Below, piece after piece: positions 1 to 4,987 of a stretch of 4,987 bases of DNA. How positions within the stretch are numbered: the stretch's first letter is position 1; each line of letters opens with the position of its first letter. The position numbers and the translations under genes were made by a program. Location of the stretch: IMG/VR virus record IMGVR_UViG_2690316166_000020, one strand, 5' to 3'. The DNA is from a virus (Duplodnaviria; Heunggongvirae; Uroviricota; Caudoviricetes). The notes beneath the pieces are model-generated. The model was given only the letters and a program-made list of their open reading frames with translations, was not told the DNA's origin and searched no databases.

Positions 1-28
1 ACACTATCAATAAGTTGGAGTCATTACC
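1..28. repeat. Left copy of a perfect 28-bp inverted repeat (partner at 4957-4984)
   Basis: Read directly: 1-28 acactatcaataagttggagtcattacc is the exact reverse complement of 4957-4984 ggtaatgactccaacttattgatagtgt. The match breaks inward at 29/4956. Outward extension cannot be tested because the left copy starts at window position 1. Confidence 0.95.
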
Positions 29-410
29 CGTTAAAACATCTGCAGATAATGACGTTGACTTGGATACAGATGGATTCAGACAACTGAGGATATCGTGCCC
101 ATCCCCTTCTGCCAGCGGTGCGATTATATTGAGAAAAGCTTCTTATGAATTCGGCAAAAGTATAGGTGTATTTGATTTTGCAAACAATGCATCACCAGCG
201 ACGATGACATTTTTGATCCCAATATATAAAGATGATGATTTTGATTCAGATACTGTTGGTTTTACATTTGCGTTCAAGATGCCAAGAGGCCAGTTTTTTG
301 TAGATGTAAAAGAAAACGGGAATATCAGAGCTGGAGTTAATGTTAATGGCGAGTCGGGAGTGACCTACGAAAATTGCAAATTGAATATGAAAGATATTAA
401 TGATGATTAA
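3..410 (+). CDS. 3' portion (about 135 codons) of an AT-rich ORF of unknown function; the 5' end probably lies upstream of the window
   Basis: Frame 3 is open from the first full codon (pos 3) to TAA at 408-410. The track start at 15 is a TTG with no Shine-Dalgarno; the first in-frame ATG (204-206) also lacks an SD, so the gene most likely begins upstream. Hand-counted GC is about 35% versus about 60% in the downstream tail genes. The translation (...KDDDFDSDTVGFTFAFKMPRGQFFVDVKENGNIRAGVNVNGESG...) is beta-rich and acidic, with no motif I recognise. It is the only long ORF on either strand in 1-410 and is followed by a terminator. Confidence 0.55.
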   Translation, partial: TINKLESLPVKTSADNDVDLDTDGFRQLRISCPSPSASGAIILRKASYEFGKSIGVFDFANNASPATMTFLIPIYKDDDFDSDTVGFTFAFKMPRGQFFVDVKENGNIRAGVNVNGESGVTYENCKLNMKDINDD

Positions 411-416
411 TATATA

Positions 417-442
417 AGCCGCCAGAAATTGGCGGTTTTTTT
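417..442 (+). terminator. Rho-independent terminator downstream of the AT-rich ORF
   Basis: Stem 419-424 (ccgcca) pairs with 430-435 (tggcgg), 6 bp, with one or two extra closing pairs (418 G-U, 417 A-U). Loop is gaaat (425-429). A run of 7 T follows (436-442). It lies 7 nt after the TAA stop. Confidence 0.6.
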
Positions 443-456
443 ATAGTGGAGACAGT

Positions 457-1977
457 ATGGACTTACCTTCTTTACCTTCTCTTTCTTCACTCTTTTCTGC
501 ATCTTCAGGTATCAATTGGCGCGATAATCTTTACGACGCTTCATTTCGTGGCGTTCCGTTTTCGGTGGAGAGCGACGAGGGTTCGTTCGGACGCCGCGTT
601 CAGGTCCATGAATACCCAAACCGTGACAAACCGTACACGGAAGATCTCGGGCGTGCCACGCGACGGCTGACGATTAATGCGTATCTCGTTGGTGATGATT
701 ACGCAGAGCAGCGCGACAGGCTGATTACAGCGATTGAAACCGCCGGGCCGGGGACGCTGATCCATCCGCAGTTCGGTGAAATGCAGGGCTGTATTGACGG
801 GCAGGTGACCGTTTCTCACTCCGGCACTGAAGGCCGTATGTGCCGGGTTTCATTTCAGTTTGTTGAGAGCGGGGAACTGTCATTTCCGGTCGCCGGANNN
901 NNNNNNNNNNNNNNNNNNNNNNNNNNNNNNNNNNNNNNNNNNNNNNNNNNNNNNNNNNNNNNNNNNNNNNNNNNNNNNNNNNNNNNNNNNNNNNNNNNNN
1001 NNNNNNNNNNNNNNNNNNNNNNNNNNNNNNNNNNNNNNNNNNNNNNNNNNNNNNNNNNNNNNNNNNNNNNNNNNNNNNNNNNNNNNNNNNNNNNNNNNNN
1101 NNNNNNNNNNNNNNNNNNNNNNNNNNNNNNNNNNNNNNNNNNNNNNNNNNNNNNNNNNNNNNNNNNNNNNNNNNNNNNNNNNNNNNNNNNNNNNNNNNNN
1201 NNNNNNNNNNNNNNNNNNNNNNNNNNNNNNNNNNNNNNNNNNNNNNNNNNNNNNNNNNNNNNNNNNNNNNNNNNNNNNNNNNNNNNNNNNNNNNNNNNCT
1301 GGCGGGCCGGAACCCGGCTGGTGGATAACACACAGGATCTGGTGCAGTCCATAACGACAATGTCCGGCATTACGCTGGACCCAGGACTGGCACCGCGTGC
1401 GGTGTGGCCCACAGATTCCGCATCGGTTATCAGGCAAAAACAGCAGACAAACCTTGTGGCTGCTGTCATCCGGACGACGGCAATCAGCGAAGCCACAAGG
1501 GCGGTCACTTCACTGCCACAACCCGGAAGCCTGGTGAAAAATCAGCAGGCGGTTGTGGCTGTTGGTGGTTCCACTGAACGTCAGTCCGATATTATTCACG
1601 TTTCTCATCCGGCACTTGACAGCGTGGCAGCCAGCACAGGACAGGATGAGAGAGCGCAACCACCCACGCGGGAAAATCTCACCATCATACGCGAATCGCT
1701 GAACGCGGCGATTGAACAGGAGCTCAGGCGTACGGCGGATGACAGGCTGTTTTTTCAGCTGACGTCATTACGTACAGAACTGAACCGGGATATTCAGGCG
1801 CGTCTGGTTCAGACGGAGGAAACCGCAGAGCGAACGCCAGCGGAAGTTCTGCCTGCGCTTGTTCTGGCTGCGTCATGGTACGACGATGCGTCCCGTGAAA
1901 CTGATATCCTGGATCGAAATGCCATCTCTCATCCGGGCTTTGTTCCGGTCAGGGCATTAAGGGTACCCGTCAGATGA
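457..1977 (+). CDS. Mu N-like tail protein (DNA circularization protein family), 506 codons, internally masked
   Basis: ATG at 457 is preceded by GGAG (448-451) with a 5-nt spacer; the ORF runs to TGA 1975-1977. Visible parts are the N-terminal 147 aa and C-terminal about 225 aa (898-1298 masked). The N-terminal region (...DNLYDASFRGVPFSVESDEGSFGRRVQVHEYPNRDKPYTEDLGRATRRL...YLVGDDYAEQRDRL...GPGTLIHPQFG...) matches my recollection of the DNA-circularization N-terminal domain family of Mu-like phages. Length (about 500 aa) and position directly upstream of, and overlapping by ATGA with, a P-like gene fit Mu order N-P. No database search was possible. Confidence 0.75.
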   Translation: MDLPSLPSLSSLFSASSGINWRDNLYDASFRGVPFSVESDEGSFGRRVQVHEYPNRDKPYTEDLGRATRRLTINAYLVGDDYAEQRDRLITAIETAGPGTLIHPQFGEMQGCIDGQVTVSHSGTEGRMCRVSFQFVESGELSFPVAGXXXXXXXXXXXXXXXXXXXXXXXXXXXXXXXXXXXXXXXXXXXXXXXXXXXXXXXXXXXXXXXXXXXXXXXXXXXXXXXXXXXXXXXXXXXXXXXXXXXXXXXXXXXXXXXXXXXXXXXXXXXXXXXXXXXXXXWRAGTRLVDNTQDLVQSITTMSGITLDPGLAPRAVWPTDSASVIRQKQQTNLVAAVIRTTAISEATRAVTSLPQPGSLVKNQQAVVAVGGSTERQSDIIHVSHPALDSVAASTGQDERAQPPTRENLTIIRESLNAAIEQELRRTADDRLFFQLTSLRTELNRDIQARLVQTEETAERTPAEVLPALVLAASWYDDASRETDILDRNAISHPGFVPVRALRVPVR

Positions 1978-2666
1978 ATGATACCGTTTTACTTCGGGTT
2001 TCCGGTCGCGAATGGGGCGGCTGGACATCCGTCCGTATCAGTGCGGGCATTAACCGTATTGCCCGGGATTTTAATGTTGCCATTACCACCCGCTGGCCCG
2101 GAAGCCGGGATTATCAACCCCGGATAAAAAATGGTGAGCTGGTTGAAGTGCTTATCGGGGATGAGCCTGTGCTCACCGGATATGTGGAGGCACTACCGCT
2201 TCGTTATGACGCCAGCAGCGTCAGCATGGGAATTGTNNNNNNNNNNNNNNNNNNNNNNNNNNNNNNNNNNNNNNNNNNNNNNNNNNNNNNNNNNNNNNNN
2301 NNNNNNNNNNNNNNNNNNNNNNNNNNNNNNNNNNNNNNNNNNNNNNNNNNNNNNNNNNNNNNNNNNNNNNNNNNNNNNNNNNNNNNNNNNNNNNNNNNNN
2401 NNNNNNNNNNNNNNNNNNNNNNNNNNNNNNNNNNNNNNNNNNNNNNNNNNNNNNNNNNNNNNNNNNNNNNNNNNNNNNNNNNNNNNNNNNNNNNNNNNNN
2501 NNNNNNNNNNNNNNNNNNNNNNNNNNNNNNNNNNNNNNNNNNNNNNNNNNNNNNNNNNNNNNNNNNNNNNNNNNNNNNNNNNNNNNNNNNNNNNNNNNNN
2601 NNNNNNNNNNNNNNNNNNNNNNNNNNNNNNNNNNNNNNNNNNNNNNNNNNNNNNGCGGTTTTCTGA
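1974..2666 (+). CDS. Mu P-like baseplate/hub protein; start well supported, true 3' end uncertain (masked)
   Basis: ATG at 1974 overlaps the stop of the upstream gene (ATGA, 1974-1977). The visible N-terminal 87 aa (MNDTVLLRVSGREWGGWTSVRISAGINRIARDFNVAITTRWPGSRDYQPRIKNGELVEVLIGDEPVLTGYVE...) resemble Mu P / late-control-D-like tail proteins as I recall them. 2237-2654 is masked. The end coordinate 2666 is only the first in-frame stop in the unmasked island 2655-2739; the gene may really extend into the 2740-4235 mask (Mu P is, from memory, about 380 aa). Confidence 0.55.
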   Translation: MNDTVLLRVSGREWGGWTSVRISAGINRIARDFNVAITTRWPGSRDYQPRIKNGELVEVLIGDEPVLTGYVEALPLRYDASSVSMGIXXXXXXXXXXXXXXXXXXXXXXXXXXXXXXXXXXXXXXXXXXXXXXXXXXXXXXXXXXXXXXXXXXXXXXXXXXXXXXXXXXXXXXXXXXXXXXXXXXXXXXXXXXXXXXXXXXXXXXXXXXXXXXXXXXXXXXXXXXXXAVF

Positions 2667-4235
2667 ATATCAGGTCAGTGGGCAGCGCCCGGGCAACGAC
2701 GATGATTTTGGTGAGGCCACCATTGCCGCAATACGTCANNNNNNNNNNNNNNNNNNNNNNNNNNNNNNNNNNNNNNNNNNNNNNNNNNNNNNNNNNNNNN
2801 NNNNNNNNNNNNNNNNNNNNNNNNNNNNNNNNNNNNNNNNNNNNNNNNNNNNNNNNNNNNNNNNNNNNNNNNNNNNNNNNNNNNNNNNNNNNNNNNNNNN
2901 NNNNNNNNNNNNNNNNNNNNNNNNNNNNNNNNNNNNNNNNNNNNNNNNNNNNNNNNNNNNNNNNNNNNNNNNNNNNNNNNNNNNNNNNNNNNNNNNNNNN
3001 NNNNNNNNNNNNNNNNNNNNNNNNNNNNNNNNNNNNNNNNNNNNNNNNNNNNNNNNNNNNNNNNNNNNNNNNNNNNNNNNNNNNNNNNNNNNNNNNNNNN
3101 NNNNNNNNNNNNNNNNNNNNNNNNNNNNNNNNNNNNNNNNNNNNNNNNNNNNNNNNNNNNNNNNNNNNNNNNNNNNNNNNNNNNNNNNNNNNNNNNNNNN
3201 NNNNNNNNNNNNNNNNNNNNNNNNNNNNNNNNNNNNNNNNNNNNNNNNNNNNNNNNNNNNNNNNNNNNNNNNNNNNNNNNNNNNNNNNNNNNNNNNNNNN
3301 NNNNNNNNNNNNNNNNNNNNNNNNNNNNNNNNNNNNNNNNNNNNNNNNNNNNNNNNNNNNNNNNNNNNNNNNNNNNNNNNNNNNNNNNNNNNNNNNNNNN
3401 NNNNNNNNNNNNNNNNNNNNNNNNNNNNNNNNNNNNNNNNNNNNNNNNNNNNNNNNNNNNNNNNNNNNNNNNNNNNNNNNNNNNNNNNNNNNNNNNNNNN
3501 NNNNNNNNNNNNNNNNNNNNNNNNNNNNNNNNNNNNNNNNNNNNNNNNNNNNNNNNNNNNNNNNNNNNNNNNNNNNNNNNNNNNNNNNNNNNNNNNNNNN
3601 NNNNNNNNNNNNNNNNNNNNNNNNNNNNNNNNNNNNNNNNNNNNNNNNNNNNNNNNNNNNNNNNNNNNNNNNNNNNNNNNNNNNNNNNNNNNNNNNNNNN
3701 NNNNNNNNNNNNNNNNNNNNNNNNNNNNNNNNNNNNNNNNNNNNNNNNNNNNNNNNNNNNNNNNNNNNNNNNNNNNNNNNNNNNNNNNNNNNNNNNNNNN
3801 NNNNNNNNNNNNNNNNNNNNNNNNNNNNNNNNNNNNNNNNNNNNNNNNNNNNNNNNNNNNNNNNNNNNNNNNNNNNNNNNNNNNNNNNNNNNNNNNNNNN
3901 NNNNNNNNNNNNNNNNNNNNNNNNNNNNNNNNNNNNNNNNNNNNNNNNNNNNNNNNNNNNNNNNNNNNNNNNNNNNNNNNNNNNNNNNNNNNNNNNNNNN
4001 NNNNNNNNNNNNNNNNNNNNNNNNNNNNNNNNNNNNNNNNNNNNNNNNNNNNNNNNNNNNNNNNNNNNNNNNNNNNNNNNNNNNNNNNNNNNNNNNNNNN
4101 NNNNNNNNNNNNNNNNNNNNNNNNNNNNNNNNNNNNNNNNNNNNNNNNNNNNNNNNNNNNNNNNNNNNNNNNNNNNNNNNNNNNNNNNNNNNNNNNNNNN
4201 NNNNNNNNNNNNNNNNNNNNNNNNNNNNNNNNNNN

Positions 4236-4370
4236 GTTGCTTCCCGTCTTGATATTAACGCTGTCCGGACCGGGACAGACTCGCTGGCACTTGCCATTAC
4301 CATTTACCAGCGTGACGGCAATATTCACAACATTATTTTTGATGATATCTGGAGTGAACTGAATGGCTGA
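4236..4370 (+). CDS. C-terminal 44 codons of a small baseplate protein (possibly gp25/W-like wedge, Mu gp46 position); 5' end masked
   Basis: Frame 0 is open from the mask edge to TGA 4368-4370 (...VASRLDINAVRTGTDSLALAITIYQRDGNIHNIIFDDIWSELNG*). It is more protein-like than the alternative frame ending at 4362. The stop overlaps the start of the next gene by 8 nt. Family assignment rests on synteny (gene immediately upstream of a Baseplate-J-like gene) and a loose resemblance to gp25/W C-termini. Confidence 0.4.
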   Translation, partial: VASRLDINAVRTGTDSLALAITIYQRDGNIHNIIFDDIWSELNG

Positions 4371-4987
4371 CAGTCAGTTTTATCGCCCCGGCCTCCCGCA
4401 ACTTATTTCTATGATCCGGAGCGATTTATTAACCCGCTTTGAGCAGGATACGCTGCTTCGTCGTATGGATGCGGAAGTGTATGCCCGTGTACAGGCTGCA
4501 GCCGTACACACGTTGTACGGGTATATCGATTATCTTGCCAGAAATCTGTTACCGGACGTGTGTGATGAAGACTGGCTGTACCGGCACGCCAGAATCAAAC
4601 GCTGCCCGCGAAAAGAAGCGGTGGCAGCCCGGGGATTTGTGCGCTGGGATGGCGTAGAGGGGACGCCGGTATTGCCAGCGGGAACGCAGATCCAGCGTGA
4701 TAATCAGGTGACCTTTACCACGACGGCGACGGTGACCGCAGCCGATGGTCTTCTCCGGGTGCCTGTTGTGGCAGACGAACCGGGATCGGCGGGGAATACG
4801 GATGATGGTATTGCCATGCAACTGGGAACACCCGTCAGTGGTCTGCCGTCCACAGGGTACGCTGACACCATTACAGACGGTGAAGATATTGAAAATCTGG
4901 AAATATGGCGTGCCCGCGTTATGGAACGTTATTACTACATTCCACAGGGGGGCGCAGGTAATGACTCCAACTTATTGATAGTGTTTT
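4363..4987 (+). CDS. Baseplate J-like protein (Mu gp47 / P2 gpJ family), N-terminal 208 codons; continues beyond the right edge
   Basis: ATG at 4363 is preceded by GGAG (4351-4354) with an 8-nt spacer. My hand translation finds no stop through 4986 (MADSQFYRPGLPQLISMIRSDLLTRFEQDTLLRRMDAEVYARVQAAAVHTLYGYIDYLARNLLPDVCDEDWLYRHARIKRCPRKEAVAARGFVRWDGVEGTPVLPAGTQIQRDNQVTFTTTATVTAADGLLRVPVVADEPGSAGNTDDGIAMQLGTPVSGLPSTGYADTITDGEDIENLEIWRARVMERYYYIPQGGAGNDSNLLIVF). It is absent from the supplied track only because it has no stop in the window. The sequence is typical of the N-terminal region of Baseplate_J family proteins as I recall them. Confidence 0.75.
   Translation, partial: MADSQFYRPGLPQLISMIRSDLLTRFEQDTLLRRMDAEVYARVQAAAVHTLYGYIDYLARNLLPDVCDEDWLYRHARIKRCPRKEAVAARGFVRWDGVEGTPVLPAGTQIQRDNQVTFTTTATVTAADGLLRVPVVADEPGSAGNTDDGIAMQLGTPVSGLPSTGYADTITDGEDIENLEIWRARVMERYYYIPQGGAGNDSNLLIVF
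4957..4984. repeat. Right copy of the perfect 28-bp inverted repeat (partner at 1-28), lying inside the Baseplate-J-like CDS
   Basis: Exact reverse complement of 1-28. In the J-like frame it encodes ...GNDSNLLIV...; the left copy encodes TINKLESLP in the AT-rich ORF. Confidence 0.95.

Follow-up and report, generated by a model that had tools for sequence, protein, structure and literature searches.

The perfect inverted repeat bounding the window (the whole 4,987-nucleotide stretch of DNA analysed here) consists, with a probability of about 0.96, of the tips of two IS1 copies at contig breaks in a defective phiP27-like prophage, most likely of Shigella sonnei, into which the two elements were inserted independently. 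This reading draws directly on the match of the arms to IS1, the full-length copies, both target-site duplications, colinearity with an intact prophage and the recurrence of the contig in many assemblies. On this reading, two IS1 copies transposed independently, and in opposite orientations, into a tail/baseplate module with Mu-type tail genes, where one split a 160-aa gene and the other baseplate J after codon 198, each insertion generating the 9-bp target-site duplication typical of IS1. Short-read assemblers then emit the ~4.4-kb stretch between the two elements as a contig, its ends lying a few tens of bases into IS1.

The arms of the inverted repeat are IS1 termini

Positions 1–28 (ACACTATCAATAAGTTGGAGTCATTACC) and 4957–4984 of the window are 100% reverse-complementary, as the initial annotation had noted. 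Its view that the match is not due to chance holds up under calculation: none of 200 dinucleotide-preserving shuffles gave a matching repeat, and ~5e-11 perfect 28-nt inverted pairs are expected in the 2,671 unmasked bases. Its GC estimate of about 36% likewise agrees with the 35.7% measured for the arm. Masking accounts for 2,316 of the 4,987 positions (46%), which are N, and the lengths of the N runs in the window are not faithful, the three runs being 129, 79 and 314 nt longer than the replaced sequence when a 100%-identical sister contig is taken as reference. In this particular genome the runs could still conceal something unexpected. Internal coordinates are inflated to that extent and, because the N runs exceed what they replace, the true arm-to-arm distance is ~4.41 kb, not 4.93 kb.

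Against the IS1-type terminal inverted repeats (GGTGATGCTGCCAACTTACTGAT... / GGTAATGACTCCAACTTATTGAT...), both arms proved identical to the IRR of annotated IS1A. The left arm is identical to IS1A 741–768 of E. coli K-12 MG1655, and the reverse complement of the right arm (4957–4987) to IS1A 738–768. The latter match spans 31 nt and includes the final ttt, which had been singled out earlier as a possible extension of the repeat and is indeed part of the repeated element. Each arm is the insB-proximal end (IRR) of a different IS1 copy; the opposite IS1 terminus, GGTGATGCTGCC..., is present at the far ends in the sister sequence L013 and in the neighbour contig L016. Of 5,426 finished E. coli genomes, 4,296 contain the 31-mer of the arm, at >49,000 places in total and a median of 7 per genome, and it was annotated there as IS1 transposase in all eight rows sampled; these counts, together with the Shigella literature, agree with a multicopy, dispersed element. 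Compared with IS1 of E. coli K-12 (IS1A/IS1B), whose terminal 28 and 31 nt are identical to the arms, there is no difference of substance, the window having the tips of two copies only. The IS1-related features of the window are as follows.

1..28, + strand: tip of the left IS1 copy, last 28 nt, IRR downstream of insB (identity to IS1A 741–768; full copy at L013 15–782)
29..37, no strand: inner copy of the left 9-bp target-site duplication, CGTTAAAAC (same 9-mer outside the other IS1 end at L013 6–14, and in L016)
4948..4956, no strand: inner copy of the right 9-bp target-site duplication, GGGGGCGCA (same 9-mer past the far IS1 end at L013 5963–5971)
4957..4987, − strand: tip of the right IS1 copy, last 31 nt, same IRR terminus (identity to IS1A 738–768; full copy at L013 5195–5962)

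Each complete IS1 copy has its own target-site duplication

Both junctions are present in L013, which comes from a 61.7-kb contig. IS1 occurs there twice at its full length of 768 bp, at 15–782 (+) and 5195–5962 (−), the two copies being inverted relative to each other and 99.5–99.6% identical to IS1A. It was in this sister sequence, not in the window itself, that element size, InsA/InsB and the frameshift were examined. The IS1 products matched the Pfam families Zn_ribbon_InsA (E 1e-21), HTH_Tnp_IS1 (E 5e-31) and DDE_Tnp_IS1 (E 6e-78), and the A6C −1 frameshift motif TTAAAAAACTC lies at L013 319–329. In length, insA, frameshift motif, insB and 9-bp target duplications, the full copies are like IS1.

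The target-site duplication of IS1 is typically direct and 9 bp long. Both 9-mers next to the arms were predicted before being seen, the chance of each being ~4e-6; CGTTAAAAC is single-copy in the intact target (6001–6009 of the intact prophage L001), as is GGGGGCGCA in the intact gene (L001 10402–10410). No target duplication is obvious around the reference IS1A copy of K-12. For standard IS insertions at large, a general statement in mBio gives target duplications of 1–9 bp (PMC11708052, 2024). Since each IS1 has its own 9-bp duplication and the DNA between the copies is colinear with the intact prophage, the two elements arrived by independent, simple insertion. The uncharacterised invertible or mobilisable segment offered as a first option by the initial annotation gives way to IS1 termini with adjoining insA/insB and a separate duplication for each element.

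The same flanks bear on whether the segment and its two IS1 copies form an IS1 composite transposon of the Tn9/Tn1681 type, arriving or moving as a unit. IS1 composites are known with inverted copies (Tn1681) and with direct copies (Tn9), and here two IS1 copies, inverted as in Tn1681, bracket a DNA segment of a few kilobases (L013 15–782 and 5195–5962). However, the outer flanks differ (CGTTAAAAC versus GGGGGCGCA), so that there is no unit-level target duplication, and each IS1 has a duplication of its own. The interior, moreover, natively continues the prophage genes on either side, and no other context was found for it. Unlike in Tn9 and Tn1681, then, a composite origin is not borne out and there is no sign of movement; we regard it as extremely unlikely.

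The insertions interrupt a prophage tail module

Homology to the uninterrupted tail modules of intact E. coli prophages starts exactly at window position 29 and stops at 4956/4957. The initial annotation had placed the arms inside coding sequences; open frames do read through them, but the native genes lack the arms and end their match at these same boundaries. On the left, the frame of the gene remnant is open leftward through the IS1 tip and gives a fused product (TINKLESLP-VKT...) exactly matching WP_052939073.1, "partial [Shigella sonnei]". The genes and gene remnants between the IS1 tips are listed below.

29..410, + strand: 3′ remnant of the 160-aa AT-rich phage gene, ~127 codons plus stop (100% identical to L001 6001–6382, CDS of WP_000594909.1)
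416..445, + strand: terminator-like hairpin and T run after the left gene (consensus scan only)
457..1977, + strand: DNA circularization protein gene (Mu gp43-like), partly N-masked (L001 annotation; PF07157 on sister contigs, product 463 aa)
1974..4370, + strand: baseplate hub (gp44-like), gp45-like and GP46 genes, mostly N-masked (gene calls and Pfam on the unmasked sisters L003–L012)
4363..4956, + strand: baseplate J/gp47, first 198 codons, cut by the right IS1 (L001 9817–10410 of CDS 9817–10899)

The 160-aa gene, of unknown function, lies between the tape-measure and DNA-circularization genes; its product has no Pfam match and hits phrog_5586 at E 1e-88. Intact baseplate J is a protein of 360 aa (PF04865, E 1.6e-54), and with this gene cut the prophage would presumably be unable to build a baseplate. 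The tail module is 99–100% identical to that of an E. coli FDAARGOS_944 prophage. With the Stx2e phage phiP27, nucleotide identity is 96.7% over the stretch that opens with the DNA circularization gene and ends at the IS1 point in baseplate J; phiP27 is without the AT-rich 160-aa gene, the match to it beginning at 453. IS1 is absent from both sites in phiP27 and in the E. coli prophages. An IS600 lies nearby, in the same phiP27-like prophage of S. sonnei.

Both junctions were looked for more widely. Neither was found in any of the 5,426 finished E. coli genomes, and scans of a one-genome-per-species collection yielded neither the predicted far-left junction nor the window's own left junction. 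The two insertion sites appear specific to an S. sonnei lineage.

The segment keeps its native order and orientation

The interior and both outer flanks are colinear with L001 and point the same way. Which way the segment faces with respect to its flanks can be read only from sequences that span an entire 768-bp IS1; the single contiguous one available, L013, has the native orientation. The left neighbour contig, L016, is colinear as well, running from the tail sheath to the tape-measure genes up to the duplication and then into 30 nt of the other IS1 end. These data speak to the second option of the initial annotation, a scar left by an earlier inversion or by mosaic recombination; had two IS copies been the partners, the segment would now be inverted with respect to its original surroundings. 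A pair of inverted 768-bp repeats separated by 4.4 kb could serve as a substrate for RecA-dependent inversion, and IS-mediated rearrangement is common in Shigella (PMC7373316). Yet an inversion would swap the inner duplications (CGTTAAAAC-IS1-TGCGCCCCC), whereas the IS1 copies of L013 each keep their own pair, and interior and flanks retain the arrangement of the intact prophage. Such a scar is very unlikely.

A dedicated inversion system, in which the arms would be crossover sites flipping the 4.4-kb baseplate segment as do Gin/gix of Mu and Cin/cix of P1, has almost no probability. Its appeal lies in the inverted placement of the repeats in a phage with Mu-type tail genes, and in their length, which is similar to that of gix and cix sites; Mu G/Gin, P1 C/Cin and e14 P/Pin likewise have short inverted repeats around a few kilobases of the tail region. 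In contrast to these systems, the arms here are not isolated sites but the tips of 768-bp IS1 copies. The initial annotation had suggested looking nearby for a serine invertase or tyrosine recombinase gene; what adjoins instead is insA/insB, and in the intact prophage L001 the annotation has no invertase or other recombinase within 6 kb to the left or right. Nor are the supposed crossover sites conserved. The 28-mer is absent from both places in intact relatives, and its occurrence in neither gene is an outcome that, by the reasoning of the initial annotation itself, tells against a functional site. Lastly, the segment extends from the DNA-circularization to the baseplate J genes, with baseplate J cut mid-gene and without alternative tail-fibre ends; whereas phage invertible segments switch, the insertions here enclose baseplate genes and destroy two genes.

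The window ends where short-read assemblies break

In the assembly collection, 113 blocks contain the fused protein WP_052939073.1, and in every one of them its longest contig is <5 kb. Ten such contigs were examined. Sister contigs are 100% identical to the window in all unmasked blocks. Of the ten examined, seven reach both junctions, ending 26–28 nt (left) and 27–44 nt (right) into IS1. How much of IS1 remains at the ends differs by assembly among these contigs; one, L009, retains 28 and 31 nt, exactly as the window does. Because of this identity, and of the name borne by the protein, the window almost certainly represents one entire contig of a short-read assembly, and its source organism is most likely S. 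sonnei.

In Shigella, IS1 is the most abundant IS, accounting for 46–73% of the 229–348 IS insertions on reference chromosomes (PMC7373316). With some hundred or more near-identical IS1 copies in a genome, assemblers are blocked at IS1, and the stretch between two copies therefore emerges as its own contig. This accounts for the repeat at either end of the window. The earlier suspicion that the window boundaries are not arbitrary is thus borne out, the ends coinciding with IS1 tips where assemblers stop.

A pure assembly artefact, by contrast, would make the repeat a hairpin chimera or a k-mer overlap absent from the genome. The repeat does coincide precisely with the ends of the contig, and how much of it is retained depends on the assembly. 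Nevertheless, both junctions recur in NCBI and Logan assemblies made independently, as well as in IMG/VR contigs. L013, moreover, continues without a break across each full IS1 copy to the flanks expected beyond it, target duplications included, so that the chance of such an artefact is negligible. Only the contig-end position is an assembly effect. The artefact option of the initial annotation accordingly stands in part: its contig-end effect was correct and due to an untraversable repeat, but the k-mer or hairpin origin falls, the repeat being real DNA.

Implications for IS1-rich genomes

We consider it very unlikely that within S. sonnei populations the 4.4-kb segment detectably flips by homologous recombination or moves as an IS1 composite. 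Structural heterogeneity of this kind is invisible to short-read assemblies.

Two IS1 tips at contig breaks represent known biology, and the phenomenon is nothing new in kind. It does carry a caution: where a perfect inverted repeat is found exactly at both ends of a short enterobacterial draft window or contig, a comparison with IS termini should come first. Genomes rich in IS1, such as those of Shigella, break into contigs bounded by IS copies, and these contigs resemble invertible or mobile cassettes. For the organism itself, two pseudogenising IS1 insertions in a phiP27-like prophage of S. sonnei fit the known IS-driven decay of Shigella genomes.

The terminal repeat corresponds to IS1 termini

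Window positions 1–28 and 4957–4984 are perfect reverse complements, as the initial annotation stated, and its view that such a repeat does not arise by chance was borne out: 0 of 200 dinucleotide-preserving shuffles of the window gave a 28-nt inverted match, with ~5e-11 perfect 28-nt inverted pairs expected in the 2,671 unmasked bases. Using the annotated IS1A of E. coli K-12 MG1655 (NC_000913.3, 19796–20563) as reference, we found the left arm identical to IS1A 741–768, and window 4957–4987 (including the trailing ttt), when reverse-complemented, identical to IS1A 738–768. Since both arms match the extreme tip of IS1A on the side downstream of insB, while the opposite terminus (GGTGATGCTGCC...) differs from them at several positions, both window ends are the same kind of end. 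They belong to two oppositely oriented IS1 copies situated beyond the window. Of 5,426 finished E. coli genomes, 4,296 contain the 31-mer of the right end, with more than 49,000 sites in total and a median of 7 per genome, and an IS1 transposase annotation covers it in all eight rows sampled from these genomes.

The arms interrupt two prophage genes

Megablast against finished E. coli genomes matched window 29–897 on the left and 4236–4957 on the right, with no match among these genomes extending into either arm. The reference carrying the intact locus (L001, a prophage of E. coli FDAARGOS_944) has an uninterrupted tail module there, in the order tape measure, 160-aa hypothetical protein, DNA circularization protein, baseplate assembly proteins, GP46, baseplate J/gp47, YmfQ and tail fibre. 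Window 29 equals L001 6001, 101 nt into the 160-aa hypothetical gene, and window 4956 equals L001 10410, 594 nt into the baseplate J gene (1,083 nt). As both junctions map mid-gene, the native genes lack the 28-mer. The arms had been placed within coding sequences, which holds in that open frames run into the IS1 tips but not for the native genes; the 28-mer, sought in the two genes of related prophages, was in neither gene of intact relatives. The Stx2e phage phiP27 is the closest phage record (96.7% identity); its match likewise ends at the right junction, and the left AT-rich gene is missing from phiP27.

Interrupted left gene
Window 29–452 (intact in L001, 5900–6382): 160 aa, phrog_5586, no Pfam match

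This gene has a GC content of 37.5% versus 55% in the tail genes, and a terminator-like hairpin of its own at window 416–445. It is absent from phiP27 and therefore resembles a moron-type insertion, placed after the tape-measure gene and ahead of the DNA-circularization gene. By eye, its N-terminus MIKPFLMTVAILTSC resembles a lipoprotein signal with a lipobox. A 37-aa protein ending ...SNVKT, named 'partial [Shigella sonnei]', corresponds to the N-terminal part of this interrupted gene. S. flexneri assemblies carry the 160-aa protein as 'partial' versions of 151, 92, 133 and 124 aa (P0004, P0007, P0008 and P0009), on contigs of about 5.1–5.3 kb, which may point to further contig breaks or IS sites in the homologous prophage of that species.

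The suggestion that the arms bound an invertible or mobilisable segment was not upheld. A Gin-like site-specific inversion system fails as an explanation, because no invertase is present in the L001 annotation or the DNA adjoining the arms, the sites are IS1 tips missing from intact relatives, and the segment cuts baseplate J and offers no alternative tail-fibre ends.

Each IS1 copy carries its own target-site duplication

Simple IS1 transposition should leave 9 bp of target repeated on the far side of IS1. Before the data were seen, the predicted 9-mers were CGTTAAAAC for the left copy and GGGGGCGCA for the right copy. A scan of viral contigs returned a contiguous sister sequence (L013), part of a 61.7-kb contig with both junctions.

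Features of L013
Left outer flank: AGTAA-CGTTAAAAC
15–782, + strand: complete left IS1, 768 bp
Interior: CGTTAAAAC-ATCTGCAG..., then ~4.41 kb of prophage, then ...CACAG-GGGGGCGCA
5195–5962, - strand: complete right IS1, 768 bp
Right outer flank: GGGGGCGCA-GACCCTG..., baseplate J resumed from L001 10402

Both predicted duplications were found, CGTTAAAAC on either side of the left IS1 and GGGGGCGCA on either side of the right. The two copies are 99.5–99.6% identical to IS1A, their products match Pfam InsA and DDE_Tnp_IS1, and the A6C frameshift motif is present. On the left neighbour contig (L016), the tail sheath, tube and tape-measure genes are colinear up to the left duplication, and the contig stops 30 nt inside the IS1 terminus GGTGATGC... 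That each IS1 has its own duplication, with a chance of ~4e-6 for each flank identity, shows that the arms mark two independent, simple IS1 insertions.

The same flanks speak against other histories. The initial annotation had raised the scar of an inversion or of mosaic recombination. Had the segment been inverted between the IS1 copies, the inner copies of the two duplications would have changed places; these are unswapped, and segment order and orientation agree with the intact prophage, so that we reject a scar. We likewise reject a composite-transposon origin of the IS1-segment-IS1 unit, as the outer flanks are unlike each other and the intervening DNA is native to the prophage. Homologous recombination between the inverted 768-bp IS1 copies could nevertheless flip the segment occasionally in a subset of cells.

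The other end of L016 (4,498 nt) is an IS600 terminus at 4449–4498, near the tail sheath start (about L001 288). Together with the two IS1 copies this makes at least three IS insertions in about 10 kb of prophage. In the FDAARGOS_944 prophage, the tail sheath gene is split by ISEc60 (IS4-like; L001 781–1971); here a different host shows a separate IS insertion in a prophage of this family.

Contig ends and masked sequence

Among the unmasked genes of the window, only the IS1-fused remnant (3–407) reaches a stop codon. Its exact product occurs in 113 blocks of a public assembly collection, the longest contig being below 5 kb in all 113, and corresponds to WP_052939073.1, 'hypothetical protein, partial [Shigella sonnei]' (longest contig 4,497 nt). 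We examined 10 contigs with this product (GCA_001250495.1, GCA_001249875.1 and GCA_001256555.1 from NCBI, plus Logan runs). All 10 start at the common left junction and seven reach the common right junction; these seven keep 26–28 nt of IS1 on the left and 27–44 nt on the right, varying with the assembly, and one (L009) has exactly the window's ends (28/31 nt). Recurrent ends of this kind typify de novo assembly halted at a multicopy repeat. IS1 accounts for 46–73% of the 229–348 IS insertions per Shigella reference chromosome (PMC7373316). An assembly effect, also raised initially, thus accounts for the contig-end positions; the repeat itself as a pure artefact is excluded, the same junctions being present in independent assemblies and both in the contiguous L013. 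The unmasked blocks are 100% identical to L013 and a sister contig without N masking (L003), and because sister contigs are identical and the protein is so named, we infer that the window is a whole contig from S. sonnei. In one Logan assembly (L007, 4439–4468) the right-junction IS1 tip has a single-base variant (GATGGTG versus GATAGTG), reflecting either sequence differences among IS1 copies or copies mixed in assembly.

N runs in the window
898–1298: 401 nt (272 nt in L003; 129 nt longer)
2237–2654: 418 nt (339 nt in L003; 79 nt longer)
2739–4235: 1,497 nt (1,183 nt in L003; 314 nt longer)

The N-run lengths are not faithful; they reflect either estimated scaffold gaps or masking that altered the length, and this gives an apparent shift of reading frame across the second and third of them. 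In sister contigs the gp43–gp46 sequence behind the runs is unremarkable. Under the second run, the gp44-like baseplate hub gene holds a GCTGGT hexanucleotide array (3.8 copies; L005, another sister contig, 2391–2413), and its product has 358, 360, 362 or 364 aa by assembly, which suggests in-frame repeat-number variation between isolates.

Consequences for the prophage

The repeat consists of the ends of two IS1 copies, located where short-read contigs break, and its biology is already known. Baseplate J is predicted to be cut at codon 198 of 360, and in the 160-aa gene the break would follow the signal-like N-terminus. This prophage is very probably defective. A defective, IS-hit prophage fits the IS-driven decay known for Shigella genomes (PMC7373316).
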